DNA from: a virus
Taxonomy: Duplodnaviria; Caudoviricetes
IMG/VR virus record: IMGVR_UViG_3300032219_000696
Location: 1-37,032 of that record
Length of the DNA: 37,032 nt
Direction: 5' to 3' (one strand)
How positions within the stretch are numbered: position 1 is the stretch's first letter; each line of letters opens with the position of its first letter. The notes beneath the pieces were generated by a model. It made no database searches, had not been told where the DNA came from, and was given only the letters and a program-made list of their open reading frames with translations. A program made the translations under genes and the position numbers. Shown here in pieces: positions 14,119 to 35,476 of this stretch.

Positions 14119-14322
14119 ATGACACCAATACCAAAACCAACGCTACAACAGGCAATCGACGGCATTAGTGACCGTGACGAGTTCAAAGTAATTGTAACAT
14201 TCATCCGCGAGGAGCGTGAAAAGTTCTTTGGTGATCTTCGGTCAGCAGAATCATCCAATGACGTTATGAAGATTGCTGGTTCAATTGCAGCACTTGATGA
14301 ACTGCTTTCAGTCTTGTCTTGA
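14119..14322 (+). CDS. Small helical protein between portal and scaffold
   Basis: Packed ORF with the conserved-looking end AGSIAALDEL. Confidence 0.7.
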   Translation: MTPIPKPTLQQAIDGISDRDEFKVIVTFIREEREKFFGDLRSAESSNDVMKIAGSIAALDELLSVLS

Positions 14323-14345
14323 CATTATCGTAATCATGTTATAAC
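14319..14345 (+). promoter_or_regulatory. Sigma70-like promoter
   Basis: TTGACA (14319-24) and extended -10 TGtTATAAC (14337-45); the spacer is short (15 nt). Confidence 0.55.
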
Positions 14346-14350
14346 AAAGT

Positions 14351-14424
14351 CATGCACGGTTGTTTGTGCGTTTCATTGTTGTTGTGTTTAAAGCCTCCAA
14401 GCGTAAAAACTTGGAGGCTTTTTT
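14351..14424 (+). ncRNA. Candidate ~74 nt small RNA
   Basis: Bounded by a promoter and an intrinsic terminator; 5' mini-hairpin GCACGG/TTGTGC, unpaired GU-rich core, no meaningful + strand ORF. Confidence 0.5.
14390..14424 (+). terminator. Rho-independent terminator
   Basis: AAAGCCTCCAAG-cgtaaaaa-CTTGGAGGCTTT followed by TTT. Confidence 0.9.
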
Positions 14425-14519
14425 ACGTCTATATCTATACATTGCTAAACTACTTGACATACTAATGATTTAATGATTGACTTCGTGCATCGCCAACGCA
14501 AGGCGTAAAACTAGCGTTT

Positions 14520-15569
14520 ATGACTAATAGCACCAATCAAGCCACCGCTGAGGCTACACAATCAGTGTCAGATAACATCTCATTTGAGGAGCTTGTAGCT
14601 CGTAGAATCGGGAAAGAAGTTGCACCAGAGACGGAAGAAGAGTCCGAGGAGGAAGCAGTAGATACTGATGACGCTGAACTTGCCAGTCTAGAAGACGGAG
14701 ATGACGCAGAGGAATCTACTGAAGAATCTGATGACGAATCGGAAGAAACTCCAGAGGAGCATGAAGAAATAGACCTGCTAAGTCTCTCTACAGAGCAGAT
14801 TCAAGAACTTGCCAAAAAAGGTAAAAGCCGACTACTTCAACGAATTGGAGAGCTTACCGCCCAAAAGCGGAGCCTAGAGGAAAAACTTGCTGCTCAACCC
14901 CTGCCAGCACCGCTTGCAAATGGTGACAGAATGCCAGACGACATCCAAGCAATTGGAGATCTAGTGGCACTGAAATCATTCCATGAGGAGATGGCAAGGA
15001 CATTGGAGATGACGGATGACATTCTTGACGAACACCAAGATTATGCTGATGACGATATTATCGTTGTTGGTGACAAGGAGTTCCCCAAGTCTAAAATCCG
15101 TCTAGCTAACCGAAATTCCAAAAAGGCAATTACCAAGTACATCCCTGCTAGACAGCAGGAGATTGCAAAGATTGCTGAGTACGGAGTGATGGAACAGCAA
15201 TACTTAGCAGCAGCACAAAAAGAAGTCCCAGACATTACGGATGAAACGTCCGATATTGGAAAGAACTACAAAGCACTAATTTCTGACCCGCTAATTTCTA
15301 AAATCAAACGAGACATCCCAGAAATTGGGATACAAATAGAATACATCCTTGCACACGCATCAAAGTCTATCTTTGGAGGTAAAGCAAAGTCTATACAAAC
15401 TGGAGCTGGGAACAAGTTGAAGGTGTCGCCACCCGCTTCCCCAGTTGGTTCTGGTTCGTTAAAGATTAACTCTAGCTCAAAGACAAAAACTAAAGATGCG
15501 TACAACAAGTTTGAATCAACAGGATCTGTTGAAGATTGGGTTGCTTCCAGAATTGCTAGAATGAAATAA
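14520..15569 (+). CDS. Capsid scaffolding protein
   Basis: Very acidic N-terminus, RIGELTA coiled coil, directly upstream of the capsid gene. Confidence 0.85.
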   Translation: MTNSTNQATAEATQSVSDNISFEELVARRIGKEVAPETEEESEEEAVDTDDAELASLEDGDDAEESTEESDDESEETPEEHEEIDLLSLSTEQIQELAKKGKSRLLQRIGELTAQKRSLEEKLAAQPLPAPLANGDRMPDDIQAIGDLVALKSFHEEMARTLEMTDDILDEHQDYADDDIIVVGDKEFPKSKIRLANRNSKKAITKYIPARQQEIAKIAEYGVMEQQYLAAAQKEVPDITDETSDIGKNYKALISDPLISKIKRDIPEIGIQIEYILAHASKSIFGGKAKSIQTGAGNKLKVSPPASPVGSGSLKINSSSKTKTKDAYNKFESTGSVEDWVASRIARMK

Positions 15570-22071: not shown

Positions 22072-22308
22072 ATGATGAAAAAATCGACAACACTAAAGAA
22101 GACGCTGACAGACCTTGATTTTGCTTTATCGCAAGCACCGGAGTATCGGCGTGACAACGAGTTTACAATAGCTGATTTCATGGAGCGAAAGGGTGTTACG
22201 GAGTCAGTTTCTAGACGCATTTTGAACGAAATGGTTAAAGAAAAAAAGCTCGTTTTCCGCAAAGGTCTACACGATGGACGGTATTCTAGGCTTTACTCTA
22301 AGGCTTAG
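22072..22308 (+). CDS. Small winged-HTH-like protein
   Basis: FTIADFMERKGVTESVSRRILNEMVKEKKL; last gene of the + arm. Confidence 0.6.
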   Translation: MMKKSTTLKKTLTDLDFALSQAPEYRRDNEFTIADFMERKGVTESVSRRILNEMVKEKKLVFRKGLHDGRYSRLYSKA

Positions 22309-22487
22309 TCTAGTGCTGGTATTTCAAACGTGAAGTAATGGTCTAGCTCAAGCATAATAGCCGCGAATACCTCTGCTTCGATATGTTCGTGCGTTGGATC
22401 GTCGGTGTGCTTGTGCGCCCTGCGGATTCCTTTTACGCATCCTGATTCAATCGCGTCTCTGACGATATTGTATATGTTTGGTTTCAT
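22305..22487 (-). CDS. Conserved small phage protein
   Basis: GIRRAHKHTDDP motif; last gene of the - arm. Confidence 0.65.
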   Translation of the reverse strand: MKPNIYNIVRDAIESGCVKGIRRAHKHTDDPTHEHIEAEVFAAIMLELDHYFTFEIPALD

Positions 22488-22495
22488 GTATTTAG

Positions 22496-23428
22496 TTACT
22501 TATTATTTTGAGAGAATTTTCCATGCCATTGCTGCCACTGCTGGAACTTGTCCATTTCCAATGGCTTTAAGTCTGTCCACTCGATTACCCACCCCATGAG
22601 CCACTCGCTGAACGCAGGATTCAGATGCCCACCAGTCTGAAGGCTTGGCATACTCTCCGTCATTTCTAACTTGGTAAGTGAGGTCGTCCATTGTTGGCCC
22701 AGGACACTCGCATTCTCCATATTCATATCCGCATTCTGGACACTCATGGAAACCATCGACATCATCCATGTCTCTGGAGCAGTCGGAGGCGTAAACAACC
22801 CGCTTCCATCCACGGACGTATATACTTGTCGGGAAGTTTGGTCTATTTTCATCCGTCCGTCCTTCCTTTGTTTGCTCATGCCCATTGTATCCTTCCAGTC
22901 TCTGGCGTTTGGGGTAGCCCAGTATCCAAATCCTGTTCCTAACGTGTGGAGCGTTGGCGTGGCATGCTCCCAAAATTCCCCATCGAGCATCATACCCCAT
23001 TCTGGAAAGGTCACACAGGATTTGTCCAAGTCCTCTGTGAACAAGCTGTGGTGAGTTCTCAATAAAAACGTATCTTGGTCGCACTTCATTGGTAATTCTT
23101 GCCATCTCACTCCATAGTCCTGATGACTCTCCCTTGATACCTTCTGCTCCTTGTTTGATTTGGGATATATCAGTGCAGGGAAATCCCCCGCAAACCACAT
23201 CAACTTTCCCTCTCCAGGGTGTTCCATCAAAGGTGCAGACATCGTCCCAGATTGGGAATCTTGGAAGGATTCCGTCTCGTTGTCGTTGGAGTAAGACCTT
23301 TCGGCAGTAAGGTTCAATCTCGACAGCACATACGGTGGTATGTCCGCAAAGCATCCCGTCAAGGATGCCTCCTCCTGCTCCTGCGAAGAGATGGAGTTCT
23401 CGCATTGGTTGTTTAGGTAGTAATACAT
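22496..23428 (-). CDS. Overlapping-frame partner subunit of the C5 methyltransferase (motif IX carrier)
   Basis: 310 codons open inside the MTase gene; WATPNARDWK and GHLNPAFSEWLMGWVIEWTD; the true start may be internal. Confidence 0.7.
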   Translation of the reverse strand: MYYYLNNQCENSISSQEQEEASLTGCFADIPPYVLSRLNLTAERSYSNDNETESFQDSQSGTMSAPLMEHPGEGKLMWFAGDFPALIYPKSNKEQKVSRESHQDYGVRWQELPMKCDQDTFLLRTHHSLFTEDLDKSCVTFPEWGMMLDGEFWEHATPTLHTLGTGFGYWATPNARDWKDTMGMSKQRKDGRMKIDQTSRQVYTSVDGSGLFTPPTAPETWMMSMVSMSVQNADMNMENASVLGQQWTTSLTKLEMTESMPSLQTGGHLNPAFSEWLMGWVIEWTDLKPLEMDKFQQWQQWHGKFSQNNK

Positions 23429-23441
23429 TTTTTAAGGTCAT
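22503..23441 (-). CDS. DNA (cytosine-5) methyltransferase (start may be 23405)
   Basis: Motifs I LFAGAGG, IV GGFPC, VI EN, VIII HVRNRIW, X AIGNGQVP; no motif IX in this frame. Confidence 0.93.
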   Translation of the reverse strand: MTLKNVLLPKQPMRELHLFAGAGGGILDGMLCGHTTVCAVEIEPYCRKVLLQRQRDGILPRFPIWDDVCTFDGTPWRGKVDVVCGGFPCTDISQIKQGAEGIKGESSGLWSEMARITNEVRPRYVFIENSPQLVHRGLGQILCDLSRMGYDARWGILGACHANAPHVRNRIWILGYPKRQRLEGYNGHEQTKEGRTDENRPNFPTSIYVRGWKRVVYASDCSRDMDDVDGFHECPECGYEYGECECPGPTMDDLTYQVRNDGEYAKPSDWWASESCVQRVAHGVGNRVDRLKAIGNGQVPAVAAMAWKILSK

Positions 23442-23508
23442 TCATTTATGTTGTTGTTCAAGAGTCTGTTGAAACATCCGTAATGGACGTTTAGGTCAGC
23501 GAGCAGGG

Positions 23509-24042
23509 TTATCCTGCGTTTCCTCGTTTATCGGTCGAGGCGACTTTGTTCAGTCCATCGCTGTTTAGGTAATATCTAGCAATTAGGAATGCGTCAACCA
23601 TGCCGTCATGCGGTGTCGTGCAGCGTTTATTAGCTAGCCATGTCTCGTCTGGAGCTAACTCGTTTGCCAACGCCAATGCAAGAACTTTCGTCATCCCTGC
23701 TTCCCGCTTCTTACCAAGCATTGCGTCCTGCCACGGTCTGACAGCGATACGAGCAACTGGCAACCCGTGTGCAAGACAAGCCCCGTACAGCATACCGAAC
23801 GCTAACGCCATCGAGCGGATAGCTTGTGATGACTTAGCGTGTGCCAATGGTTCCTCTATGGCAATTGAAACGTCCTGTGGCAGGAATCCTCGGACGTAGC
23901 GCAGCACCGCCAAAACGTCCACCTCGGTCTTGCCGTTGTGTTTGGTCGTCGGCATGGGTATTGAGCTGATAACTGCACCGTTGTGTGCTGAAATAGCGCA
24001 CAAACCACCCGAAATACCATTGTCCGCTCCAATCACAATCAT
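23509..24042 (-). CDS. RuvC-like Holliday junction resolvase
   Basis: IGADNGISGG, IAIEEP, P.W, HDGMVDAFLIA. Confidence 0.88.
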   Translation of the reverse strand: MIVIGADNGISGGLCAISAHNGAVISSIPMPTTKHNGKTEVDVLAVLRYVRGFLPQDVSIAIEEPLAHAKSSQAIRSMALAFGMLYGACLAHGLPVARIAVRPWQDAMLGKKREAGMTKVLALALANELAPDETWLANKRCTTPHDGMVDAFLIARYYLNSDGLNKVASTDKRGNAG

Positions 24043-24281
24043 GGTCTAATGCTGGTAATTTTAATGCCGTGATGCCATCCTACAACGGTGACTTCACCAC
24101 CAAGTTTAGCTCGTAGCAATGTAGCCAGATCCTCTTGGTAGATTTTTAATGGTGCTTCATTCAACGTCCGTAAAATGTCCTCAACCATGATCGTGGCTTG
24201 TGATCGGATCGTGATTTGATAATTGTCCATCAGATCCCCGTTCGGACATGAGGCTCGGTGCGTGGTTTCGTATATGTTCAT
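24039..24281 (-). CDS. QueF-like (T-fold) protein
   Basis: CPNGDLMD, IMVE, YQE, HHGIKITS match the QueF Cys/Asp/Glu/Glu layout; coupled to the DpdA-like gene. Confidence 0.65.
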   Translation of the reverse strand: MNIYETTHRASCPNGDLMDNYQITIRSQATIMVEDILRTLNEAPLKIYQEDLATLLRAKLGGEVTVVGWHHGIKITSIRP

Positions 24282-24889
24282 CTTAATAGGTCAGGGTGGT
24301 TATGATCGTGCGATAGGTAGCTTGCCAGTTCTGCTGTCCTGTGCGGATCGCGGAACCAACCCGTACCATCACAGGATTCTGCTCCAGCATTTTCTGCCAT
24401 TAGCAGCAATCGGATTGAGTTGACCCTGCCAACATGGACGCGAGGGAATGATGATGGCCACATGGGGAGACTTCGCCATTTCCACGATGTTGAGCCGCCG
24501 ACGAAGACCATAGCGCATTCTTTCGGAACATCAGATGGGGTCATACCGTCCTGCACTGCCATTGCTAGCGGTACGCCGAATGCCTGTAGTGCTGGTGCGT
24601 GTTGATCCCACAGGCGTAGCGTCTCGTCTCTGTCTCCGACCCAATCTGGAACAACTACCCATAGTGGTTTCCAAGCTGCATAGTCATCAAGATATTTATA
24701 AAGTGGTTCTTCACTCCATTTCCTTTTAGAAGACCATGCTCCGAAAACTCCGTTGTCCATGGCCCAAGGAATCCCTTGGATTGGTTCCCGTGGTGACTCT
24801 ACTGAGTGCAAGTGTCCAAGTCGCCCAGGGTGTTTTCCGAATAGGAATCCTGCGGCAAATCCAGTGTTGTTTGAAGGCATTATTATCAT
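24278..24889 (-). CDS. DpdA/TGT-like deazaguanine transglycosylase
   Basis: MDNGVF, VVPDWVGD, AVQDG, FVGGS, HVGRVN, SCDGT in TGT motif order. Confidence 0.72.
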   Translation of the reverse strand: MIIMPSNNTGFAAGFLFGKHPGRLGHLHSVESPREPIQGIPWAMDNGVFGAWSSKRKWSEEPLYKYLDDYAAWKPLWVVVPDWVGDRDETLRLWDQHAPALQAFGVPLAMAVQDGMTPSDVPKECAMVFVGGSTSWKWRSLPMWPSSFPRVHVGRVNSIRLLLMAENAGAESCDGTGWFRDPHRTAELASYLSHDHNHPDLLR

Positions 24890-24953
24890 TTAACGATACA
24901 AGTTGACTTATCCTGCATATTTGCTCTAGGCGGGGTTAGTTGGTTTGAGGGAT

Positions 24954-25157
24954 TTACAAGATACCATCATCAATTTCTTGTATCAAATATTCTGGAATAC
25001 CGTGGTATGCGGTTTGGATTTTGTCAAAAGGATCTGTTGCGCTACCGTAGCTTTCATAAACTCCTTTTCCAATAATAGTCAATTTTTCATGAATAATTGG
25101 GCGGGTCATACCTAGCAATTCATATGCATAATCTGTAAGGATTATATTGCTTTTCAT
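24954..25157 (-). CDS. Hypothetical protein
   Basis: ATG with A-rich leader. Confidence 0.55.
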   Translation of the reverse strand: MKSNIILTDYAYELLGMTRPIIHEKLTIIGKGVYESYGSATDPFDKIQTAYHGIPEYLIQEIDDGIL

Positions 25158-25175
25158 GGTGATTTTTAGTTTGAG

Positions 25176-25196
25176 TAGGTGACAGTTTGTCACCTA
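25176..25196. promoter_or_regulatory. Palindromic operator-like site
   Basis: TAGGTGACA-gtt-TGTCACCTA just upstream of a - strand ATG. Confidence 0.55.
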
Positions 25197-25478
25197 GTTG
25201 TGGTTTTCTTCGCGGTAAAGTTTATCGATTTTAACCAACGCTGAAAGCACATCTTTTTCTGAAAGGCTTATGTTTCTGGCTATGTATATTTGAGCGCAGA
25301 TTCTACTAGCCTCCGCAAAGTTTTTATTAAGTTTTTCCTGGAATAGCAACTTGTTGCATAGTTCCTTCATTCGATCCGCTGCTTCAGCAATGGCAGCGTT
25401 GGCTACACCATCTTGCGTTTGGATGTCTTGTGCCAGTACACGCAACGCACCAATGATTGTTTCGGTTTTAGTCCTCAT
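25194..25478 (-). CDS. Hypothetical protein
   Basis: AIAEAADRM motif; packed ORF. Confidence 0.65.
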   Translation of the reverse strand: MRTKTETIIGALRVLAQDIQTQDGVANAAIAEAADRMKELCNKLLFQEKLNKNFAEASRICAQIYIARNISLSEKDVLSALVKIDKLYREENHN

Positions 25479-25695
25479 GCTTTTTGTATTGTGCTAGCAT
25501 TTTCATTGCAGTTTTTGTAATTAATTGTAGCTCGTCAGGATCGACTTTTATGGTTTGCTCGTTTTGGGTTAAAACGATATAACCACCACAAGCTTCATCG
25601 TCGATGGTAATGGTAATAATATCGTCGCCGAATATAGGATTGCGGTCATCCATGTGTACTACGGTGCTTATAATGCTTGTTGTGTATTTGCTCAT
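25468..25695 (-). CDS. Hypothetical protein
   Basis: IDDEACGGYI motif; packed ORF. Confidence 0.65.
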   Translation of the reverse strand: MSKYTTSIISTVVHMDDRNPIFGDDIITITIDDEACGGYIVLTQNEQTIKVDPDELQLITKTAMKMLAQYKKHED

Positions 25696-26075
25696 TGGTT
25701 TATGTACGGTGATGTGAATTCTTTTTTGTTGTGACCCCAGCGGCCTGTGTGTTTTCTTTCAGGTTGGTTAAGCTGTAACAGGTTTAGTAAGTAATCCCTC
25801 TCCGCAACTAACTCAGCGTGACCCTTTTGCCAGATGTGGCAACTGCGGATGGCTTCGTCCCGCTGCTCGGTGACGGCGGTGAGTTTGGTTTGCAACCGTT
25901 TGCACTCACTCCATATAGTCCCGTTTGGATCGAGTAGCTCATGTCCAAGGTCTTTGTTTTGCTGGAGGTATTTTGCTTTCCATTCGTCCCGCTCGCGTTC
26001 TAACTGCTCCGCAAACTCAGTCGGAACAACGTGGTTTCCCCGCGCAAGGTCATCCGTTTCTGTTGTGTCAGTCAT
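25692..26075 (-). CDS. Coiled-coil hypothetical protein
   Basis: MTDTTETD...FAEQLERE; ATGA coupling. Confidence 0.65.
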   Translation of the reverse strand: MTDTTETDDLARGNHVVPTEFAEQLERERDEWKAKYLQQNKDLGHELLDPNGTIWSECKRLQTKLTAVTEQRDEAIRSCHIWQKGHAELVAERDYLLNLLQLNQPERKHTGRWGHNKKEFTSPYINQ

Positions 26076-26353
26076 TTCAGCACCTCCTGCACGGTAATAC
26101 GTTCCCAATTGTAGTATGGGGTTGTGCTGATTGGGTATAAGTAGTTGCTAAACGAGTCTACCCATACCTCAAACGTGCGAGGTTCTGGCTTGATACGGTA
26201 TTCTTCAGGATCGTCGTAAAAGCCAATTTCTTCGTCTTCCTCAAAGTCATCCCAATACGGTTTTTCATGGCAACCGTTTCGATATTGTATCTGCTTGCCG
26301 TCAATCAATGCTTGGACGATTGGCAGGAATAAATGTGCGTTTTCTTTGTTCAT
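26072..26353 (-). CDS. Hypothetical protein, paralog A
   Basis: MNKENAHLFLP...GK.IQ...W.D...YRIKPE. Confidence 0.75.
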   Translation of the reverse strand: MNKENAHLFLPIVQALIDGKQIQYRNGCHEKPYWDDFEEDEEIGFYDDPEEYRIKPEPRTFEVWVDSFSNYLYPISTTPYYNWERITVQEVLK

Positions 26354-26369
26354 ATTGTTTTGTTGAGGT

Positions 26370-26386
26370 GGTTACATTTTGTAACC
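26370..26386. promoter_or_regulatory. Palindromic operator-like site
   Basis: GGTTACA-ttt-TGTAACC. Confidence 0.5.
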
Positions 26387-26623
26387 AGTTGATCGTGCTT
26401 CCTGTACTATTTCACCTTCTTTGAGAAAACGGTACTCTGTTTCAATAGGTTGTTCTGGCTTAATCCGGTAGTATTCTGGCGCGTCGTAAAAACCGATTTC
26501 TTCAGTTTCATCAAAGTCCTCCCAGTGAGAATTACCAAATGCGCCGGATTTAACTTGTAAATTTTTACCATCCACCAATGCTTGCAAGAGTGGCAGGAAT
26601 AAATGTGCGTTTTCTTTGTTCAT
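26372..26623 (-). CDS. Hypothetical protein, paralog B
   Basis: Clear paralog of 26072-26353. Confidence 0.75.
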   Translation of the reverse strand: MNKENAHLFLPLLQALVDGKNLQVKSGAFGNSHWEDFDETEEIGFYDAPEYYRIKPEQPIETEYRFLKEGEIVQEARSTGYKM

Positions 26624-26835
26624 ATTGTTTTGTCGAGATGGTTACAATTTGTAACCGGCTGATCGTGGTTGTAGTCACATTCCTCGCACGTCATGCCGTA
26701 GATGTAATGCGATTCCTTTTCTTTACCGCATTTGTGACACAGGTGTGCCACAGGCTTACGAAATATCCGCTCGTAGTTTGTTGCGTATTTACCGTTATCC
26801 ATCTTGCGTGGGATATCACCCTTACCTGCACTCAT
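26620..26835 (-). CDS. Hypothetical protein with CxxC...CxxC
   Basis: MSAGKGD..R N-terminus and zinc-ribbon-like Cys pairs. Confidence 0.65.
   Translation of the reverse strand: MSAGKGDIPRKMDNGKYATNYERIFRKPVAHLCHKCGKEKESHYIYGMTCEECDYNHDQPVTNCNHLDKTI
26640..26656. promoter_or_regulatory. Palindromic operator-like site
   Basis: GGTTACA-att-TGTAACC. Confidence 0.5.
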
Positions 26836-27080
26836 CTTGATAGTTTCTCCTTGGTTTCTAGTTGCTCGTTTTCTTCATGCTTCTTGACCTCATCCAGAAA
26901 CATTTTGTAGGTAGCTATGTCCTCCTCCAGTCCGTCGATCTCTTCCTCCTCCATTGGCAGGGTTGGTCGAGATTTACCCGTCGATTTGAAATGCAGTTGA
27001 TCAAAGTAGACCTTCAACATACAAAGCAACGGTAAGCTCTCGGCGTGGTGTTTCGGTAGTTTTATGTTTTTTAAACTCAT
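26832..27080 (-). CDS. Hypothetical protein
   Basis: ATGA-coupled ORF. Confidence 0.6.
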   Translation of the reverse strand: MSLKNIKLPKHHAESLPLLCMLKVYFDQLHFKSTGKSRPTLPMEEEEIDGLEEDIATYKMFLDEVKKHEENEQLETKEKLSR

Positions 27081-27661
27081 AATATGTCTCCTTTTCTGTA
27101 CGATTCCCAGCTAAAGTGTACTCCGCATCCGTTTTCACGAATCCGATCCAGCACCGCAGGGGATAGCGACTCAGCGAACCGCTTCCTGTCATGGTTTGAG
27201 ATTAGCAATGTGGGTTTATTATCCATGTATCTTGCATCTATGATGGCCGTTAACTTCTGGTCTTCAAATGCCGTCTCACCTCGATCTTGTATCTCGTCGA
27301 TGACCAGGAAGGCAGCATTGCTGTAATCGTTTATAATGCCCCTCTCGGTGCGCTCAGACTCTTTCTTATACGTCTCCCTAATCTCCATGAACAAATTGAC
27401 TGCGGTCGTGTATACGCAAGGCAAATCACGTTTAACCATGCCAGATCCTCTCCCAACAGTCGTTTGATTATTCGGTGGGGTGCAGACCTTAGCAATCTCG
27501 TATGCCATGCGTGTTTTCCCCGTACCGTGTTTGCCATACAACAAGGTAATCCCACCGTTATTAGTAGATAACAACACGTTGTTGTACCCTTCCCACCACT
27601 CAATCCCAGTAGGAGTGACAGAATCCTTGTAGCGTTTAGGAAATCCCTTAAGGTAGTTCAT
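27077..27661 (-). CDS. DnaC/IstB-like AAA+ ATPase (helicase loader)
   Basis: GKHGTGKT, LVIDE, IIDARY, PTLLISN, VLDRI. Confidence 0.92.
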   Translation of the reverse strand: MNYLKGFPKRYKDSVTPTGIEWWEGYNNVLLSTNNGGITLLYGKHGTGKTRMAYEIAKVCTPPNNQTTVGRGSGMVKRDLPCVYTTAVNLFMEIRETYKKESERTERGIINDYSNAAFLVIDEIQDRGETAFEDQKLTAIIDARYMDNKPTLLISNHDRKRFAESLSPAVLDRIRENGCGVHFSWESYRKGDIL

Positions 27662-27978
27662 TTTAAACCTCTTTTCTTGAAGGATGCGTCCAAAACATTG
27701 GTTAAGCAATAAAAATTACGCTTTTTCTTAAATTCGTTCCAGTCGATCACGGGTGTTGGTTCAATAGCCTCGGATTCTGCCGTCCTAATTAGCCTTTCAA
27801 CCGCTGATGAGAACGAGCAATCAAGCCTTTCTGCAAGGCTCGTAACCCGTCTGAATGTCTCAACTGAGAAGCTGACACGGGTATTCACCTTCTTGTCCTG
27901 TATCTGGTTTCGTTTGCGTCCAGAGCCGAATGAGAACTTGCGGTGCTTTATTTTGACTCGTTCAGTTTGCGCTTGCAT
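27658..27978 (-). CDS. Ribbon-helix-helix-like DNA-binding protein
   Basis: TRVSFSVETFRRVTSLAERLDCSFSSAVERLI. Confidence 0.6.
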   Translation of the reverse strand: MQAQTERVKIKHRKFSFGSGRKRNQIQDKKVNTRVSFSVETFRRVTSLAERLDCSFSSAVERLIRTAESEAIEPTPVIDWNEFKKKRNFYCLTNVLDASFKKRGLK

Positions 27979-28184
27979 TTTTCTTCGATTGCCTCCGTTA
28001 AGGTTTTAAGGTTCTTCTGCTCAATCACAATCCCGTGGGTTTTGCGGTAGATTAGCTTGTCACTAACCAACCCATAAGGGATTTTCTTAGACCTTGCCGT
28101 TGTCATAAGCATCTTACCTTCGACAATCACTTGACCAGGTGCAACAGGATCGCCGTAAAACATATCATCAAGTCTGGTAATCAT
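27948..28184 (-). CDS. Hypothetical protein
   Basis: Packed ORF. Confidence 0.55.
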   Translation of the reverse strand: MITRLDDMFYGDPVAPGQVIVEGKMLMTTARSKKIPYGLVSDKLIYRKTHGIVIEQKNLKTLTEAIEEKCKRKLNESK

Positions 28185-28381
28185 TGCGCTATGAAGTAAT
28201 TGGCAAATGACTTGCCATTTTTCCTAATGGTTTCCGTGATGATCGGTGTACCTGCGTTGCGTAGTTCGTTAATCCTCGCACTAAGCCTAAAGCATCCCCA
28301 TTTCTTCAAGGCCTCCATTGGAGTGATACCGTTTCCGTTTACCAAATGCTCATGTAGTTTGTCTATTATGCTGGTTTTCAT
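28181..28381 (-). CDS. Winged HTH protein
   Basis: ITPMEAL...GCFRLSARINELR.AG..I. Confidence 0.85.
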   Translation of the reverse strand: MKTSIIDKLHEHLVNGNGITPMEALKKWGCFRLSARINELRNAGTPIITETIRKNGKSFANYFIAQ

Positions 28382-28395
28382 TGTGTTTGTGTTGT

Positions 28396-28602
28396 TTATT
28401 CGTTCCAAAGTTTGATTTTAATTTTGCTGGCTAACCCAGCGACTGCGTGTTTCTCCTCCGTATCTCGATGGAAATGCTTAGTTTTCTCCTTGTAAGCGAT
28501 CCAAGTTCCATCCTTCGACTGCTCAACGTGAATCTGGTGCTTACGCATCCATTTTAGCCTCGGAGATAACTCTTCGGGTAGCTCATCAAAGAGAAACTCC
28601 AT
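28396..28602 (-). CDS. Hypothetical protein
   Basis: LSPRLKW motif; packed ORF. Confidence 0.6.
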   Translation of the reverse strand: MEFLFDELPEELSPRLKWMRKHQIHVEQSKDGTWIAYKEKTKHFHRDTEEKHAVAGLASKIKIKLWNE

Positions 28603-28741
28603 TTCGTTTTGCTATGTTCTTGAGGATGTTTAACCACCCAGTTTGCTTCTTAGGTTGGCTAATTGCTTTGATGATTGCTAAGGTCAAAACAGGATCGCTC
28701 CCGATTGCTCTGATTGGTTTGTAAATTTGTTTTAGTCTCAT
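28586..28741 (-). CDS. Hypothetical 51 aa protein (absent from the ORF track)
   Basis: MRLKQIYKPIRAIGSDP...; ATGA-coupled, fills the gap. Confidence 0.5.
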   Translation of the reverse strand: MRLKQIYKPIRAIGSDPVLTLAIIKAISQPKKQTGWLNILKNIAKRNGVSL

Positions 28742-28944
28742 TGTGTAAGTGTGTTGATTTCGTTTTTGTGTCTCCAGACTTCAAGCCCTCTTGGCGTTTC
28801 GACTAGCGAGGATCGGCATCCCGCCATGTCACGCAAGACGGTTCTCAGCCATGTCATTTCTGTTTCGCACTTCTCGTTGTACGGCATGGTGATCGAGGTA
28901 TGTCCAAGTTTGGCGGCTTCTTCTGGTGTAATTATGGTAATCAT
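28738..28944 (-). CDS. Hypothetical protein
   Basis: Packed ORF. Confidence 0.55.
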   Translation of the reverse strand: MITIITPEEAAKLGHTSITMPYNEKCETEMTWLRTVLRDMAGCRSSLVETPRGLEVWRHKNEINTLTQ

Positions 28945-29015
28945 TTTGTGAAATAAACCCTGCTGCAATTCTGCGGGTCACAGTATTTGTATGCCGTTGC
29001 AACTCGGCTTGATGG

Positions 29016-29324
29016 TCAGAACGGAATATCCGAATCGTCATCATCCTCAACTGCCGCTTGTACGTCAGCTTTCATATTCTTAGCTTGGTGGTACGCCTCC
29101 CAGTCAGTAATCTTGGCGTTACCTACGATGATGTCCCGTTCGCCACTCAACTTGCGCTCCTTCGTGACAGCTTGCTTGATAAATCCATCGTCGCCGTATT
29201 GTCCCTTCTCACCCGTGAGGACGAGATTAAGGTTTAGGTACTTCTTGCCAGTTTTTGGCGACTCGTAGATCAAACTCTTGTCGATCTTATCTAGGTTGAT
29301 GCTTAGTGATATGTCTTGTTTCAT
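29016..29324 (-). CDS. Single-stranded DNA-binding protein (probable)
   Basis: Acidic DDDSDIPF tail; follows the recombination genes. Confidence 0.78.
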   Translation of the reverse strand: MKQDISLSINLDKIDKSLIYESPKTGKKYLNLNLVLTGEKGQYGDDGFIKQAVTKERKLSGERDIIVGNAKITDWEAYHQAKNMKADVQAAVEDDDDSDIPF

Positions 29325-30127
29325 TGTTTTATAGCCCAGTGTGGGAGTTTTAGTTTAGTGTTTCCTGAGATTGTTTTCGTCCATTTGTCTTCGCTTACGC
29401 ATTTCTTCCAGAGTGAAATTGCTTTAGTATAGCCATCCCGCCCAAGCTCGATGAATTCGCTGATGTCAACAATCGCGGTTTCATACGGTTCTGACGATTC
29501 GACGAACGCAAGGATGAATCTGTAACGGTTATCCCCTGTAATGGCGTTCCACAAATCGAGGTACATGGCCGCTTGCCAATGGTAGCCTCGGTTCAAGACC
29601 ACATTGACTAAGTTTGCCTCGCTGGTGATCGAGCTAATTGTTTTTAAGTCAATCAGACAATCTCCAGACTTCGGTGCGATGTCAACCATGCCCCTGACGT
29701 TAATTGCGTCCGATTCTGAATACATGGCAACTTCGGTATCGTATCCAGCGACAAGAAGCGGTTGCAGGTCATCGTCATCCATTATCGAATCAACAATGGC
29801 CAATGCTTGCTCATATTGCTCATTCGTTATTGGCGTGATTCCCTTGGCAATCATGTCATCCCGCCATTCCTGCGCGGCCTTCGTCCTGTATGAGTCGAAT
29901 TCGCTGATTGCGTAGTTATCCTGCCATTGATCAAGCGTTAGTGCTAAACAATGAACGAGACTGCCTAAAGCCATCGCAGGAGTGCTTTCCTTGGCTTTTG
30001 AGTGCTTCCATCCCCAAGGACTCTTTGCAAAGTCGAAGAGCATGGATTTGCTGACATATCCGCCAAGGTTTGACGGACTTGCACCACCTTCGTAGTATTT
30101 CCTGCCTAAGTCATGCTCTAGTCTCAT
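29321..30127 (-). CDS. RecE/exonuclease VIII-like PD-(D/E)xK nuclease
   Basis: GSLVHCLAL, EV, RGMVD, IDLKT, YHWQAAMY, FVES.EPY. Confidence 0.9.
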   Translation of the reverse strand: MRLEHDLGRKYYEGGASPSNLGGYVSKSMLFDFAKSPWGWKHSKAKESTPAMALGSLVHCLALTLDQWQDNYAISEFDSYRTKAAQEWRDDMIAKGITPITNEQYEQALAIVDSIMDDDDLQPLLVAGYDTEVAMYSESDAINVRGMVDIAPKSGDCLIDLKTISSITSEANLVNVVLNRGYHWQAAMYLDLWNAITGDNRYRFILAFVESSEPYETAIVDISEFIELGRDGYTKAISLWKKCVSEDKWTKTISGNTKLKLPHWAIKQ

Positions 30128-30906
30128 GGGTTTACCTCCTTTTCGAGTTCTTTAATCATCTCATCCAGAGCAAATCCAGCCTTCTTGCTGGATACCTTCT
30201 TCTCAGGTACAATCTCCGCTTCGATGGTTTCTGGTTCCTTGACGGGTTCCTGTGCTGGTTCCTCTGGTTCTGGCTCGGGTTCTGGCATCACGAATGGGTT
30301 TTTAGGTGTGACGTTCCTAGGTGGTTCCGCGAAGTCACGCACCTCGTCTTGAGTGTACATCCCCAAGCTCATGTCCGAAGCGTAAGCACGGCTCCAGAAG
30401 CTCGCTGCACGGTAGCGGAGCATTTGCCCAGGCATGGTCAGCCACTTGCTTCCGTTCTTGGTACTCCATCCTTCACGTTTAGCCATGTCCAAGGTGATTT
30501 TCTCGCCCTTCAATTCCTCTCCGCTTTCGCGATCCCGTGAAACAGCATAGCAGGAAGTCGGATTGTCGTCGTCGTCCATGATAAAGCGTAAAGGCGAAAA
30601 TTTACCGCTTGCGTTAATCATGCCAATAAGTGCTGTTGCTGACCATGAAGGTCGCCCGTGGATGATTGCGAGGTTTTGGCAGACCATCAAGGGGTCGAGC
30701 CTTGTCCGCTTTGCCACATTGAGAGCAATCGCGCAGTTGGCGACATTTCCCGCAAAGTCTTTAGGTACTAGCGTGGATTTTGAAAGCATCATTGCCTGTC
30801 TTTGGATTAGCTCAAAGGCTTGAGTCTCCGCTTGGACTTTGATCATGACGTAATTCTGTGGTTCGTGCGCCACAATCGCTTCATTTTTTGTTGTTTCAGT
30901 TTCCAT
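30124..30906 (-). CDS. RecT-like ssDNA annealing protein
   Basis: LVPKDF.G..ANC, QNL.IIHGRPSW, KW.TMP.QML.YRA, MGMYT-like LGMYTQDE. Confidence 0.85.
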   Translation of the reverse strand: METETTKNEAIVAHEPQNYVMIKVQAETQAFELIQRQAMMLSKSTLVPKDFAGNVANCAIALNVAKRTRLDPLMVCQNLAIIHGRPSWSATALIGMINASGKFSPLRFIMDDDDNPTSCYAVSRDRESGEELKGEKITLDMAKREGWSTKNGSKWLTMPGQMLRYRAASFWSRAYASDMSLGMYTQDEVRDFAEPPRNVTPKNPFVMPEPEPEPEEPAQEPVKEPETIEAEIVPEKKVSSKKAGFALDEMIKELEKEVNP

Positions 30907-31093
30907 TGTTGTTAAGAAAAGTGTTCTTTTTTTGGTCAATTACGATTCGTGCTTCTGGGTGTCTTGCTTTCGTTTTATCAACGAATTCCTTTAGTTGCTC
31001 AGTTGTTTTGTCGTTTAGGTAGACGACCATTTCTTGGTTTGTACCTAGTAAGACAGTTACTTCGTAGTCTGTTTTATGTTGTTGTGTTTCCAT
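30896..31093 (-). CDS. Hypothetical protein
   Basis: Leader AACACGAA like other early genes. Confidence 0.6.
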   Translation of the reverse strand: METQQHKTDYEVTVLLGTNQEMVVYLNDKTTEQLKEFVDKTKARHPEARIVIDQKKNTFLNNNGN

Positions 31094-31126
31094 TTCGTTC
31101 GTGTTTTATCGTTTTTATTTTATCAT

Positions 31127-31471
31127 TCAAGACAAATTTTCAGTTTCCTCTAAATTCTCATTTATCAAATCCAGCACCGTCTGGGCAGCATCGGCAAATC
31201 TGGGGTCATGCTCGACCAGGTATTGCACCCGCTCCCTTGAGTGCATAATCGTCCCGTGGTGTCTCTTGCCGATTCTCCAACCTGTATCCTGTAACGAATG
31301 CGTTTCGCTCCAGATCGTCGCTAGAAGGTGTCTTGGGGTGCAATACATCGAGAGCTTGCTATCGCTCAAGATTCCCTCTTTAGGTACAGAAAAAACGTGC
31401 GCTACGCAATCTAGAAGCTCTTCAAAACGAGATGCGTCTTCGTCATTTTCTGGCTCAAATCGTGTTTTCAT
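31127..31471 (-). CDS. Stand-alone DnaA domain IV (Bac_DnaA_C)-like HTH protein
   Basis: VAHVFSV...ILS.SK....PRH......SLQDTG..IGKRHHGTIMHS, compared with DnaA RDHTTVLHA. Confidence 0.8.
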   Translation of the reverse strand: MKTRFEPENDEDASRFEELLDCVAHVFSVPKEGILSDSKLSMYCTPRHLLATIWSETHSLQDTGWRIGKRHHGTIMHSRERVQYLVEHDPRFADAAQTVLDLINENLEETENLS

Positions 31472-31707
31472 GCCTTTCTCCTAGCTTCGGTTCTGTTGTC
31501 GTTTCGGATTCGTGAAAGCATCAAGGCGAATCTTATCCTGTCTATTTCCATGGCCTCAAAGCCAAGGATTAAAACAGCGTATTTTTGCCAAGATTCCTTG
31601 CCATGACGGGTGTGAAATCGCGTTGTGGAATTGGTGACGCTACATTTAATCAGATAATTTTTGTAATTATCATTTGCCAGCCATTTTTGTTTTTCAATAG
31701 TCATCAT
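31468..31707 (-). CDS. Hypothetical protein
   Basis: Packed ORF. Confidence 0.55.
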   Translation of the reverse strand: MMTIEKQKWLANDNYKNYLIKCSVTNSTTRFHTRHGKESWQKYAVLILGFEAMEIDRIRFALMLSRIRNDNRTEARRKA

Positions 31708-31987
31708 GTTTAAAATTGTCGTTAAGTTCTTGCTGCATATGTTCTAAATCAATACCTAAGTGATTTAGTAAGGATTGATATTGTTCCCAATTTGGGAACC
31801 CGTAGTGATTATCTGTTGTCTGGTTTCGTTGCCAGTGTTTCCTTAGTTCATTGAGCATTTCCTGTTCTCCAAGGTGGTCTTCAGCGTAGTTTATAACGTG
31901 CTTTAGGTCACTTAGGATGAAGAGCGCATCTTCGGGCGTTGCCCCGCCCTCAGTGAGCAGGTTCAATGCTTGGTTGTCTTGGTTCAT
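31694..31987 (-). CDS. Hypothetical protein
   Basis: Packed ORF. Confidence 0.6.
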   Translation of the reverse strand: MNQDNQALNLLTEGGATPEDALFILSDLKHVINYAEDHLGEQEMLNELRKHWQRNQTTDNHYGFPNWEQYQSLLNHLGIDLEHMQQELNDNFKHDDY

Positions 31988-32526
31988 GGGGTTGTCTCCG
32001 TTATATAGAATTCCTCAATAGTGTTGGCCATAATGCTGGATATTAGCATGAAAACCGCAACCTTCTCAATCGTGTTTTCAACGATGGCATCCCCATGTGG
32101 GTCAAATGCGTGCCACTTTATAGCTCCCCGATAACCATGATTCAACTCGATTGACGGTGCTATTGTGTAACCATTAATCTCCAGCATTATTTCGCTTTGC
32201 CATGACGTTTGTGGGTCCTCGCCAGTCGAAAAGCCAACGTCAATCAACTCAATTTTTGTACCTACAGGCAGGAATCTCTCGATTTTGTAACGTAACCCGT
32301 GACAAAGTAACGAACAGGCAATTGCCGCTTGAGAATCCGTTAGCCCTGATGGTTTAGCAATGTCTCGATTGCTTATTTTTTTACCGTTACCGTGGTCAAC
32401 TTCGATAGACTCGCCTAAAAATGCGTAGACTCGCAATGTGTCAACCGCAAGGCTAAATGGAACAGTTTCGGGCAAGCATCCGCTAATATGAATTTTGCTG
32501 TCTGATTTTGTAAATGATGTTTTCAT
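31984..32526 (-). CDS. Hypothetical early protein
   Basis: MKT start with conserved leader. Confidence 0.7.
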   Translation of the reverse strand: MKTSFTKSDSKIHISGCLPETVPFSLAVDTLRVYAFLGESIEVDHGNGKKISNRDIAKPSGLTDSQAAIACSLLCHGLRYKIERFLPVGTKIELIDVGFSTGEDPQTSWQSEIMLEINGYTIAPSIELNHGYRGAIKWHAFDPHGDAIVENTIEKVAVFMLISSIMANTIEEFYITETTP

Positions 32527-32529
32527 GTT

Positions 32530-32829
32530 TGTTTCGTGTTTGTTAATTAAAGAAATCGTAGAATGCGTGGTTGTCGTTCATGAGAGCCAACTTTCGTGCA
32601 AATCGTTCGATCTTGGGGAATTTCCCTCGACTTCGCGGATTATGGTTGGCAGGTAGGAATTTTTGCCATTTGCACGTTTCACGGCCTTCTGCAATGCTTT
32701 GTCGGCTTTCTCAGCCGCCTCTTCAGTTCGATGGAAAGACAGGATTCCTCCTAAGCGTCCAGGCATTGCGTTGAATGTATTAATTAATGCGTATTTAGTT
32801 TTCATATTGTTTCGTGTTTGTTAATTAAA
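32530..32829. repeat. 22-bp exact direct repeat in early gene leaders (32530-32551, 32808-32829)
   Basis: TGTTTCGTGTTTGTTAATTAAA twice, each just upstream of a - strand ATG AAA AC. Confidence 0.9.
32578..32805 (-). CDS. Hypothetical early protein
   Basis: ILSFHRTEEAAEKA; conserved leader. Confidence 0.7.
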   Translation of the reverse strand: MKTKYALINTFNAMPGRLGGILSFHRTEEAAEKADKALQKAVKRANGKNSYLPTIIREVEGNSPRSNDLHESWLS

Positions 32830-32931
32830 ATAGTGGTAAAATGCATGAAGCAGATGCTTCAGCTTGACGACAAAGGGAATGATTCCCGCGCCGATTAGGC
32901 AACAGGCGAAGACTTCTAATGTGGTTTTCAT
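32821..32931 (-). CDS. 36 aa hydrophobic peptide (absent from the ORF track)
   Basis: MKTTLEVFACCLIGAGIIPFVVKLK...; ATGA-coupled. Confidence 0.5.
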   Translation of the reverse strand: MKTTLEVFACCLIGAGIIPFVVKLKHLLHAFYHYFN

Positions 32932-33179
32932 GCTTTTGATGTAACGATTTTGTAAGACGGGCGCGAGTATTCACCGCTGGATAGTTCATACATGGGCTTT
33001 GCTTGGCTGTAAGAGCCATCAGAATCCCGTTCACAAGCGTATTGATCGCAAAGGTAGTCAATAGCCTCATTTCGCGTTTGAAACTCGATTGCTTGCCCGT
33101 TGTCATGCCGCAATACGCCGTTTTTTGGTGCATTGTGAGACGATGAATAATAAGAATATTTTGCTCTGATTTGGTACAT
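32928..33179 (-). CDS. Hypothetical early protein
   Basis: F.TR.EAIDY and YELSSGEYSRP.Y motifs. Confidence 0.65.
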   Translation of the reverse strand: MYQIRAKYSYYSSSHNAPKNGVLRHDNGQAIEFQTRNEAIDYLCDQYACERDSDGSYSQAKPMYELSSGEYSRPSYKIVTSKA

Positions 33180-33269
33180 TGTTTTTCGTTGTTTGTTGTG
33201 GGTCACTCTCTATTTTCACGGGCTTGTGACCGTCAGGCGGTGTGCCTGGCTAGGTTGCCCCGTAGGGAT

Positions 33270-33449
33270 TTATTTACACCCTCCAGAGGCAAGGAGTTTA
33301 TCAGTCGTCTTATATGGCTTTGCTTTGCTTTCGCTTTGAGCTTTCCACAGTCGAATCATTTCGGCTCTGTCTTCCTGTTCGGTGCTAGGTGTAAGACCTG
33401 AGATCGTAAGTGTGCGCCCCAGATTGTCGGATGTTATTTTTATGGTCAT
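33270..33449 (-). CDS. 59 aa hypothetical early protein (absent from the ORF track)
   Basis: MTIKITSDNLGR...GGCK with A-rich leader. Confidence 0.55.
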   Translation of the reverse strand: MTIKITSDNLGRTLTISGLTPSTEQEDRAEMIRLWKAQSESKAKPYKTTDKLLASGGCK

Positions 33450-33461
33450 GCTTTTTTGTGG

Positions 33462-33662
33462 TTATAAGATTGCGCGGAAAGCCAGTTCATCCGTAATTTC
33501 ACCCGATTTTTCGAGATGATCCACATAGTGGACGAAGGCCATGCGCGTTTCGTCATTGTGGCGGTTATATGGTGCTGTCTTAATGCCCCACATGAGAGCA
33601 TAGGATTCAAGATGTGGGTGATATTGCCAAAATGAGGCGCGGATTTGTTTTTGCGTTGTCAT
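33462..33662 (-). CDS. Hypothetical early protein
   Basis: TQKQIRASFW...R.AFV.YVD.L...GEI. Confidence 0.7.
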   Translation of the reverse strand: MTTQKQIRASFWQYHPHLESYALMWGIKTAPYNRHNDETRMAFVHYVDHLEKSGEITDELAFRAIL

Positions 33663-33712
33663 GTTTTTTGACGTTTAATGTTTGCAAGGGATTGAACCTT
33701 GCTGGTTTGGGT

Positions 33713-34444
33713 TTACTTTGTGGAGATTACGAAACCGCTTTCATCCGCTTTTCCCATGCTGCCTTTTGCGCGTAGTCCAACGATCACACTAGTTTCGTCC
33801 CAAAAGCGGATGTCGGTAATGTCTCCATCAATTACCTTACGCCCCGCCCATGTTGCTGGCAATGGTTGACCTTTTTTAGTATCGAAAACGGCAGCTACAT
33901 TGGCAACAGTATCAATCACGGACAATACCGCCCCAGAATTAGCTTCTGATCTTGAAAATGTAATGTGGTAATTCACTGGCATCTTCCCTTGTCCGTATGC
34001 AATGGCACGGGAAGGATTTTTCGTATAATCGTAGAATTGGACGGCGGGGAATCTTTCCATAAGTGAAACACCAATCTCACCTTTCAAGTTTTCCCAAGGC
34101 AGGTCACTTGTGCCATTCAAGCGAACGGCAGCGATCATGCCAAGCTTCACAGCTTTACGTTCAAGAGCCGCAATGTCCATAGCCAGCATTTCAACGAAAG
34201 CGCGAGGATTAGTGTGAAATAATTTAGTTTTAGCTATCCTGGCACGTTGTACGGAATTAAAAGCACCGCGCCCCGCCGAATAAAGACAAGCGGCCGCACA
34301 CCCTACCGATGCAAATGGGCAAAGGTTTTTCCCGCCGATAGTGTGTGGAGCTAAATAAAGAATGCCAGTAAGAACACCAAGATTTTCACCCTTTGAAGTT
34401 TTAGCGTTGGAAATTCCAAGAAGACTATTTCGTTTTGTTTTCAT
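33713..34444 (-). CDS. Gp88-like protein (Cys-motif family), first early gene
   Basis: NAKT.KG, LAP, CP.AS.GC...CL..AGRG, VRLNGTSD, FYDYTK, DGD..D.RF. Confidence 0.82.
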   Translation of the reverse strand: MKTKRNSLLGISNAKTSKGENLGVLTGILYLAPHTIGGKNLCPFASVGCAAACLYSAGRGAFNSVQRARIAKTKLFHTNPRAFVEMLAMDIAALERKAVKLGMIAAVRLNGTSDLPWENLKGEIGVSLMERFPAVQFYDYTKNPSRAIAYGQGKMPVNYHITFSRSEANSGAVLSVIDTVANVAAVFDTKKGQPLPATWAGRKVIDGDITDIRFWDETSVIVGLRAKGSMGKADESGFVISTK

Positions 34445-34487
34445 GTCGTTTGTTTGTCGTGTTGCGTTGCGTCTTGCAACTGAGAAG

Positions 34488-34516
34488 AACCTACATCACG
34501 AATTTACCATTGCCAA
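34488..34516 (-). promoter_or_regulatory. Early promoter
   Basis: TTGGCA-N17-TAGGTT on the - strand, ~45 nt before the gp88-like ATG. Confidence 0.7.
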
Positions 34517-34678
34517 CAAAAAACTACCAACAAAGTGATTTATTTTCACTTCCGTACGCTTTACGCTCTAAATCAGTGAGTTACACGTGCTAAGCGCGGC
34601 ACGTTAAACAAGCTGCGCTGGTGAATTCGACGAACCGTGAAAGCAAAGTTGATTTGTTATTGAGTAGAGAAGTGATTA

Positions 34679-34710
34679 GTTAGATCGTTAGATGGTTAGA
34701 TCGTTAGACT
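34679..34710. repeat. Tandem 8-mer x4
   Basis: GTTAGATC GTTAGATG GTTAGATC GTTAGACT. Confidence 0.9.
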
Positions 34711-34974: not shown

Positions 34975-35226
34975 GCATTAATTTTTTGCGATCAAGCAAA
35001 TGCGTTCGAAACTTTCACTCTAGAGCTAATCAGGCCGCTAACCTGGGATTATATAAGCGCAAATGACCTGGTCGAATCACAGCGCGAAATGTTCCACAGA
35101 GGTCGCGTGGAACACTCATGACTTGGCATTGGTACGCTGTGCAATGTTCCACGGAATGTTCCACGGATGTTGGCAATGTATGCACAAAGTAAAGTGTGAC
35201 GTTTCTTCACGGATTGACGCAAGCAA

Positions 35227-35242
35227 TGTTCCACGTGGAACA
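35227..35242. promoter_or_regulatory. parS: Chromosomal-type parS site
   Basis: Perfect palindrome TGTTCCACGTGGAACA, matching the bacterial parS consensus. Confidence 0.85.
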
Positions 35243-35476
35243 AACGACAAGCAATCGTTCAATTCAAACAAGTGTTTTAAACAAGCGTACGTTTAAAACG
35301 ATCGTTTAAATTACGCATGACGCAAGTAGTATGCAAATGCAAGCAACAAGCAAACGCCTGGACTATGCAAGCGCATACAATGTGCAATAGGGGGGCGGGG
35401 GTTAGGATTAGGTTGGTGTAGAAATTCCTGTACCATAAGCTAGCCAAACAAAAAATGCTACAATGGGCGAATGTAC

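Follow-up and report, generated by a model that had tools for sequence, protein, structure and literature searches.

A candidate anti-start-codon small RNA gene inside the structural block of a phage, with predicted pairing to the starts of early genes

The seed of the small RNA GcvB is G/U-rich. GcvB silences ACA enhancers (PMC3879156, excerpt), and FopS pairs near start codons, blocking translation (PMC11697453, excerpt). Small RNAs that phages direct at phage genes (sar, OOP, aQ and c4) each control one or few mRNAs (PMC12197685, excerpt). A protein, RegA of T4, is known to shut off a whole class of phage mRNAs at their start codons (PMC3014915, excerpt).

The window, that is, the whole stretch of DNA analysed, is the entire 37,032-nt phage record IMGVR_UViG_3300032219_000696 (98% complete by program estimate), and lake-water RNA libraries contain close relatives of this phage. 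The + strand carries the genes for structure, packaging and lysis (about 100-22308), and the - strand those for recombination and replication together with many small genes (22305-34444). Here, 'early' denotes the - strand set and 'late' the + strand set, an assignment by gene content and strand rather than by expression. The contrast between AC-rich early and AT-rich late leaders, proposed in the preliminary description, was borne out: the T fraction at -12 to -1 is 0.15 for the 33 early starts of the window and 0.30 for the 25 late ones (p 1e-4). ATG-AA begins 39% of early and 8% of late genes, and ACA|ATG is found at 5/33 early starts, 0/25 late starts and 5/235 internal ATGs. For comparison we used records of 41 relatives, some whole and some partial, with genes called by our own codon model; in three of them (G028, G038 and G039) the replication block is on the structural-gene strand. 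Phage C75C1, with 57% capsid identity to the window phage and no host on record, lacks the RNA unit at the corresponding place and, in this one genome, shows no leader-T contrast. No host of the window phage was found in genome scans, a metagenome scan, an atlas, cluster members, or phage and plasmid searches; the sole lead from the genome scans, a weak 24-residue match, was dismissed.

The small-RNA-like anatomy proposed in the preliminary description was confirmed at 14319-14425 (+): TTGACA is followed by a 5' hairpin, a GU-rich core that is unpaired and contains CAT, and a terminator (Table 1). The segment 14352-14425 folds into an 8-bp 5' hairpin, 18 unpaired nucleotides and a 12-bp terminator stem, with an energy (-26.5 kcal/mol, z -5.4) reached by none of 200 shuffles. 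TATAAC occupies 14340-45, with TG-T just before it. A consensus scan listed neither the promoter nor the terminator of the unit, the promoter being absent from that list because it has a spacer of only 15 nt and a -10 box ending in C. The anatomy of a stand-alone sRNA gene is present (promoter, short body and intrinsic terminator, apart from the targets), with a weak -10 box. The 67-aa ORF just upstream matched nothing in Pfam or PHROGs. Against Rfam, the window reached the gathering score of no family, GcvB and c4 included, and 14200-14600 gave six weak matches (E 0.08-9), none of them GcvB or c4. In the search for the FopS/GibS family the sole match was Bacteroides BTnc049, at 21 bits against a cut-off of 82. 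A CAT-based pattern scan of 10 genomes revealed no second copy of the unit with an upstream TTGAC.

Table 1. Coordinates of the RNA unit and of its predicted targets in the window (target positions in brackets are relative to the start codon; energies are modelled).
Feature	Position	Strand	Basis or remark
67-aa ORF	14119..14322	+	last in the block that contains terminase; anchors the RNA gene by position
-35-like TTGACA	14319..14324	+	overlaps stop codon of 67-aa ORF
TG-n and -10-like TATAAC	14337..14345	+	15-nt spacer; a profile of 91 distinct promoters shows degeneracy among relatives
Predicted small RNA, ~74 nt	14352..14425	+	both ends deduced from the terminator and the promoter spacing; fold z -5.4
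5' hairpin, 8 bp including G-U pairs	14352..14371	+	folding; 9 near relatives
GU-rich seed, anti-AUG CAT at 14374-76, unpaired 14372-89	14370..14389	+	near-invariant in 9 near relatives; CAT enrichment in the family
Intrinsic-terminator-like hairpin and U tract	14390..14425	+	folding; 66 distinct terminators compared
Predicted target: winged-helix gene at 28381, start (-12..+4, over AUG)	28377..28393	-	-11.9 kcal/mol
Predicted target, newly found: 51-aa gene at 28741, start (-11..+6)	28735..28752	-	-10.6 / -10.3 kcal/mol
Predicted target: 102-aa gene at 29324, start (-4..+6, over AUG)	29318..29328	-	11/11; -8.9 kcal/mol
Predicted target: RecT-like gene at 30906, start (-7..+4, over AUG)	30902..30913	-	-10.7 kcal/mol
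Predicted target: 65-aa gene at 31093, first codons (+4..+16)	31077..31089	-	-13.3 kcal/mol, best site of the genome
Predicted target: 75-aa gene at 32805, start (-14..+4)	32801..32819	-	-9.0 kcal/mol
Predicted target: 83-aa gene at 33179, leader (-21..-6)	33185..33200	-	-9.1 / -8.9 kcal/mol
Predicted target: first early gene at 34444 (GP88 family, PF17338), leader (-19..-6)	34450..34463	-	-8.6 kcal/mol

Among 80 loci of capsid relatives, 74 hold the 67-aa ORF and every one of these 74 has the RNA unit, directly after the ORF in 73 and behind one inserted gene in L072. Of 80 loci found by an ORF-alignment search, a set that overlaps the first and whose contigs also overlap one another, 76 have the unit (56 directly after the ORF and 20 farther downstream); two of the other four are cut within the unit by contig ends, and in two no unit was seen. 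As the downstream search demanded TTGAC and a terminator, both features are there by construction. TTGAC is within -5 to +20 nt of the ORF stop in 73 of the 74 ORF-holding loci, is retained where the stop precedes it (G027, G028, G030 and G033), and stands about 33 nt ahead of the 5' hairpin whatever the stop position or the genes inserted. Gene insertions on either side leave the unit intact, and its bodies and terminators are swapped as modules.

The unit belongs to the + strand because G-U pairs and the U tract favour that strand. The + fold is the stabler in 61 of 66 distinct terminators, with 118 G-U pairs on + versus 9 on -, and 5.9 T (in 8 nt) follow the stem versus 1.8 A before it. In nine near relatives the unpaired core is invariant save for one inserted T, whereas the promoter spacer and the stems vary. 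All cells of the 5' hairpin alignment (100%) are paired in these nine, with one two-sided and four one-sided changes. Over all stems 94% of cells are paired and 7 of 20 pairs show a two-sided change, six of the seven being in the terminator, where two rows have a different terminator.

At seven loci (L187, L190, L192, L193, L207, L208 and L217) the unit starts 44 nt ahead of the stop codon that closes the preceding ORF, and its promoter and 5' hairpin overlap coding sequence. The gap between the terminator and the scaffold promoter is an insertion site, holding up to ~2.5 kb, often of - strand genes (L005-L016, L021, L026 and others); the window has no insertion there. A pattern scan of viral contigs for promoter plus core returned 37 loci: three of this clade with a terminator, two others with a hairpin behind the match and 32 without one. 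In an unrelated phage (L357:1470-1557, -) a near-identical GU-rich core lies ahead of a terminator, and the 8-nt target word has no further copy in that genome.

The 90 distinct RNA bodies form 24 sequence clusters, whose representatives contain CAT 33 times. Mononucleotide shuffles gave a mean of 10.5 (maximum 23 in 2000) and dinucleotide shuffles 24, with 33 reached by 0/2000 of the latter. At least one CAT is present in 19/24 representatives, and many carry two or three in tandem. Conservation of the CAT-containing seed, a check suggested in the preliminary description, holds for the anti-AUG modules, which recur, and not for the exact CAT, which is missing in 5/24 cluster representatives. 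The representative of the largest cluster (37 loci) is one without CAT; often only TCA is found there, the mirror of TGA in AUG-A. Read in antisense, the modules yield an A-rich profile resembling ACA/ACC-ATG-AAA-C (A at -3, C at -2), and 23 of 28 single-stranded modules are nearer to the early-start than to the late-start profile.

Pairing was modelled with a simplified seed-and-extend procedure of our own, using Turner energies and opening costs for accessibility. Plain duplex energies, computed without accessibility, left early starts no better than internal ATGs, and the accessibility-aware model was therefore used. The four principal matches of the preliminary description are correct (29318-28, 11/11; 30904-13, 10/10; 31077-89, 13/13; 28376-93, 16/18), except that the exact 13/13 match covers codons 2-6 and leaves the AUG uncovered. 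Its three weaker matches, at 32526, 32805 and 34444, have modelled energies of -6.9, -9.0 and -8.6 kcal/mol. Two of its gene labels are supported, RecT-like by PHROG 561 and winged helix by the Pfam family HTH_39. The 'SSB' label of the 102-aa gene is less secure, since the product matches only a PHROG of unknown function and no Pfam family; in its favour is an acidic C-terminal tail that we take to be SSB-like. The small genes at 26623 and 26353 (-) have a duplicated leader and first codons in common, and the leaders at 32805 and 32526 are near-duplicates.

Of the 40 best modelled sites on the transcribed strands of the window, 16 are at early starts and 2 at late starts, the length-based expectation among those 40 being about 2 for each class. 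Two sets of 100 shuffles gave means of 6.0 and 9.1 early starts, and 16 was reached by 0/100 and 1/100. Five of the top 40 sites lie over the AUG, which is not significant, as 6/100 and 36/100 (dinucleotide) shuffles reached this number. The six exact matches of at least 9 nt at early starts in the window were reached by 16/1000 mononucleotide shuffles; with 157/1000 dinucleotide shuffles reaching six, they are not above chance by that measure. Measured against shuffles, the proposed matching to early starts stands in the model's 16 of 40 sites and falls short, against dinucleotide shuffles, in exact matches and in AUG-centred pairing. The mean best energy in the window is -6.2 kcal/mol for the 33 early starts versus -3.7 kcal/mol for the 25 late starts (p 0.003), these being modest energies (mean about -6 kcal/mol) from our own simplified model and gene caller. 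The modelled capsid, scaffold and terminase starts have only -1.8, -1.9 and -2.1 kcal/mol.

Early starts bind better than late starts, as modelled, in 29 of 31 scored genomes, which are related rather than independent; these have the unit and at least 10 early genes, and two further genomes that qualified (G024 and G031) were left out. Early starts are also ahead in the same-strand genomes G028 and G038, and marginally in G039. The AUG-covering energy was reached by at most 3/60 mononucleotide shuffles in 22/31 genomes, the window included, and by at most 3/60 dinucleotide shuffles in 13/31, the window excluded (18/60). Late starts were matched as often as early ones in G035. The seed is conserved and single-stranded, and over short, imperfect stretches it is complementary to several mRNAs, with the exceptions of G016, whose unit has no CAT, and G022, which keeps the unit and has ATG-AA at 63% of its early starts, yet shows no complementarity.

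The fit between an RNA and the early genes of its own phage was compared over 17 representatives. The mean energy was -5.5 kcal/mol with own and -4.9 kcal/mol with foreign early starts (permutation p < 1e-4), AUG-covering sites gave the same own-genome preference (p 2e-4), and an earlier 15-genome matrix agrees. Start tags, in counts that include homologous genes repeatedly, are ACA|ATG at 11/87 starts in the window's group, ATGAACA at 24/174 where the seed mirrors it versus 3/87, and ATGACA at 13/98 versus 3/87. In 13 orthologous early-gene families no own-phage preference was detected (p 0.17 and 0.69). The own-phage preference is modest and vanishes under orthologue control. Because G022 keeps the early-start style without a fitting RNA, that style is independent of a matching RNA. 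The RNA follows the general start style more closely than it co-varies with single genes, and host mRNAs are therefore possible targets.

Cis-feedback on the upstream 67-aa ORF was rejected as a general function (mean match 4.8 versus 4.5 nt, 64 distinct pairs); in the window the seed matches the start of this ORF over 4 nt. In five loci of one group (L063, L065, L066, L071 and L073) and in L053, the seed mirrors the ORF start over 9-10 nt exactly.

The RNA had been proposed as a late-expressed trans-acting switch from early to late genes. The better fit of early than late starts agrees with such a switch. The 'late' timing lacks support, since the promoter is similar to early ones: it is of the TTGACA type, like the scaffold promoter and an early promoter in G016. 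The sole late sign is the place of the unit at the end of the structural-block operon, where an upstream operon transcript would stop at the unit's terminator, carrying the seed. RNA data from 8 of 22 listed runs were available as assembled contigs, which cannot show a 74-nt RNA; that none of the listed RNA contigs spans 14331-14417 therefore carries no weight. RNA contigs from four studies start at 14497-14504, a probable-DNA run and a run of unrecorded kind continue across, and a sediment RNA run reaches 14418 with a loose end. A second TTGACA promoter-like site at 14455 (14455-14490, +), conserved in relatives, stands before the scaffold gene, and the RNA-contig starts at 14497-14504 are a weak hint that it is active. 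The first early gene is preceded at 34444-34520 (-) by a promoter-like site (TTGGCA-17-TAGGTT), a short GC hairpin and then an AC-rich leader, an arrangement also seen in G016, G022 and G051.

Other features of the window deserve mention. In the leader of the scaffold-like gene (start at 14520), the sequence just before the AUG (14484-14517, +) allows a compact H-type pseudoknot. Such a fold can be drawn in 59/63 distinct leaders (138 loci) versus 5/378 shuffles; both stems show compensatory changes, and Rfam gave no match. The C75C1 scaffold leader is similar but fails the pseudoknot rule. This structure is a candidate translational operator for scaffold autoregulation, and it recalls the T4 gene 32 pseudoknot (PMC3014915, excerpt). 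Four 13-nt repeats around TGTTCCAC, one of them palindromic, lie at 35086-35243 within a long non-coding region, and 8-nt tandem repeats lie at 34679-34708; the repeat-bearing non-coding region is a possible origin or packaging region. Two overlapping frames at 22496-23441 (-) both match DNA methyltransferase families and appear to be a frameshifted or recoded gene.

On balance, the unit probably encodes a trans-acting anti-start-codon sRNA that damps early genes as a class, and possibly host mRNAs too. The ~74-nt RNA would be transcribed from its own promoter and/or form the 3'-terminal part of the transcript of the upstream operon. Its GU-rich CAU seed would pair in vivo over the AUG, or with the flanking AC-rich leader or first codons, of many early mRNAs, and this pairing would block 30S loading on early and replication mRNAs as a class. 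The U-rich starts of the capsid, scaffold and terminase mRNAs, which are without AUG-AA, would let these messages escape. Since the promoter resembles an ordinary host-type one, an accumulating brake is likelier than a sharply late-induced switch, and such a brake would strengthen over time and with genome copy number. A broader proposal, which we put forward tentatively and regard as doubtful, is that two start classes and a consensus anti-start RNA together form an RNA-only takeover of translation. The RNA would shut off AC-rich AUG-AA mRNAs, whether own early, strong host or from co-infecting relatives, and ribosomes would pass to the U-rich late messages. If true, this would be an RNA counterpart of T4 RegA.

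Several other explanations were weighed against an anti-start-codon brake on early genes. The identical RNA and pairing could be aimed at the generic strong host-type start (AC-rich leader, AUG-AA), so that host translation is throttled; phage early genes would be caught by copying the host's best starts, and U-rich late mRNAs would escape. This agrees with a seed that stands for the consensus of starts and not for a private tag, with foreign RNAs fitting nearly as well as own ones (-4.9 versus -5.5 kcal/mol), with the absence of covariation at the level of orthologues and with the early-start style of G022, which lacks a matching RNA. We nevertheless think it unlikely, as the own-genome preference is significant over the 17 representatives and the tags shift with the seed. 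It is quite unlikely that there is no trans RNA at all and that the GU-rich stretch simply closes the upstream operon as its 3' UTR and terminator, with a role in stability or processing and complementarity arising from composition. The constant position of TTGAC, ~33 nt before the 5' hairpin regardless of stop codon or insertions, speaks against this, as do an unpaired core better conserved than the stems and a CAT that is enriched and tandemly repeated. Such a 3' UTR would nonetheless account for a stretch that terminates an operon, for the poor -10 box, and for GU-rich shuffles matching early starts 6-9 times in 40.

An RNA for exclusion or immunity, silencing early genes in relatives that co-infect or superinfect the cell, or keeping the phage quiet in a carrier state as c4 does for P1/P7, would fit the broad cross-fit among relatives and a host-type promoter that could fire without phage factors, and it has its precedent in c4 (PMC12197685, excerpt). 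The RNA gene, however, sits inside the structural block, no prophage copy was found in genome and metagenome scans, and among 68 ORFs scanned against PHROGs, many of them without a match, there were no integrase, repressor or antirepressor families and no c4-like linked antirepressor/immunity operon; this role is very unlikely. We give equally little credence to a decoy that pairs with no mRNA and binds a GU/U-rich-binding protein (for example, S1 or an RNA chaperone) or a host RNA, since it would leave both the ACA-ATG-AAA register of the modules and the own-genome preference unexplained. The RNA is indeed short, unstructured and GU-rich, some members are without CAT, and there are known phage sRNAs that act by titrating Hfq or sponging sRNAs (VpdS, AgvB; PMC12197685, excerpt). 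The preliminary description had also allowed that a - strand micro-ORF (MKRTNNRA) might be the functional element, and a - strand ribosome-loading site could be considered along with it, as the - strand of the locus resembles a strong early start with 8 codons behind it. This alternative fails because the peptide is not conserved, ranging from 2 to >80 aa with differing sequences across relatives, and because the hairpins and U tract function on the + strand. The - strand ATG is, moreover, missing at the micro-ORF in 5/24 cluster representatives, and we consider the idea largely refuted and extremely improbable.

If the anti-start-codon reading is true, an RNA that recognizes the consensus surroundings of start codons would give a compact means, needing no protein, of ending early expression, would explain the differing start contexts of early and late genes, and would constitute a portable multi-target translational repressor. 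As the family offers numerous natural variants of the seed, along with control genomes of the same-strand kind, the proposal is directly testable with reporters. In the literature available without subscription no description of the window RNA was found. Six motifs were absent from the seven supplementary files searched of the large viral RNA screen PMC10690425 (excerpt), and the RNA could still be among the candidates of that study.

Like GcvB of enterobacteria, in which one trans RNA silences many mRNAs through ACA-rich elements of the initiation region, the phage RNA would act on many messages. GcvB, however, is a host gene concerned with amino-acid uptake, and its pairing with yifK is upstream of the SD (PMC3879156, excerpt), whereas the RNA described here is phage-encoded, has a predicted length of ~74 nt and explicit anti-AUG modules, and matches nothing in Rfam. 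FopS and GibS of Bacteroides thetaiotaomicron are similar in build, with ~65-70 nt and a single-stranded seed before an intrinsic terminator; unlike the phage RNA, they are host-encoded, have few validated metabolic targets and another promoter type, and are linked to RbpB (PMC11697453, excerpt). The c4 RNA of P1 and P7 is likewise a phage RNA that pairs around the RBS of a phage mRNA and blocks translation, but it controls one antirepressor mRNA in immunity (PMC12197685, excerpt). For the window RNA, by contrast, a whole class of starts is predicted as targets, and there is no match to the C4 family of Rfam.

The start tags may have an analogue in the Start Associated Sequences of actinobacterial phages, a motif common to the starts of some phage genes, with function unknown. 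Those are conserved 13-bp SD-like tags for which the excerpt mentions no antisense partner (PMC7302621), while the window phage combines a loose start tag with a gene for a mirror RNA. By analogy, T4 RegA appears to be the closest functional counterpart, as one phage regulator that occludes unstructured, AUG-containing regions of ~30 phage mRNAs. RegA is a protein that recognizes A+U-rich sites (PMC3014915, excerpt); here an RNA would pair with A+C-rich ones.
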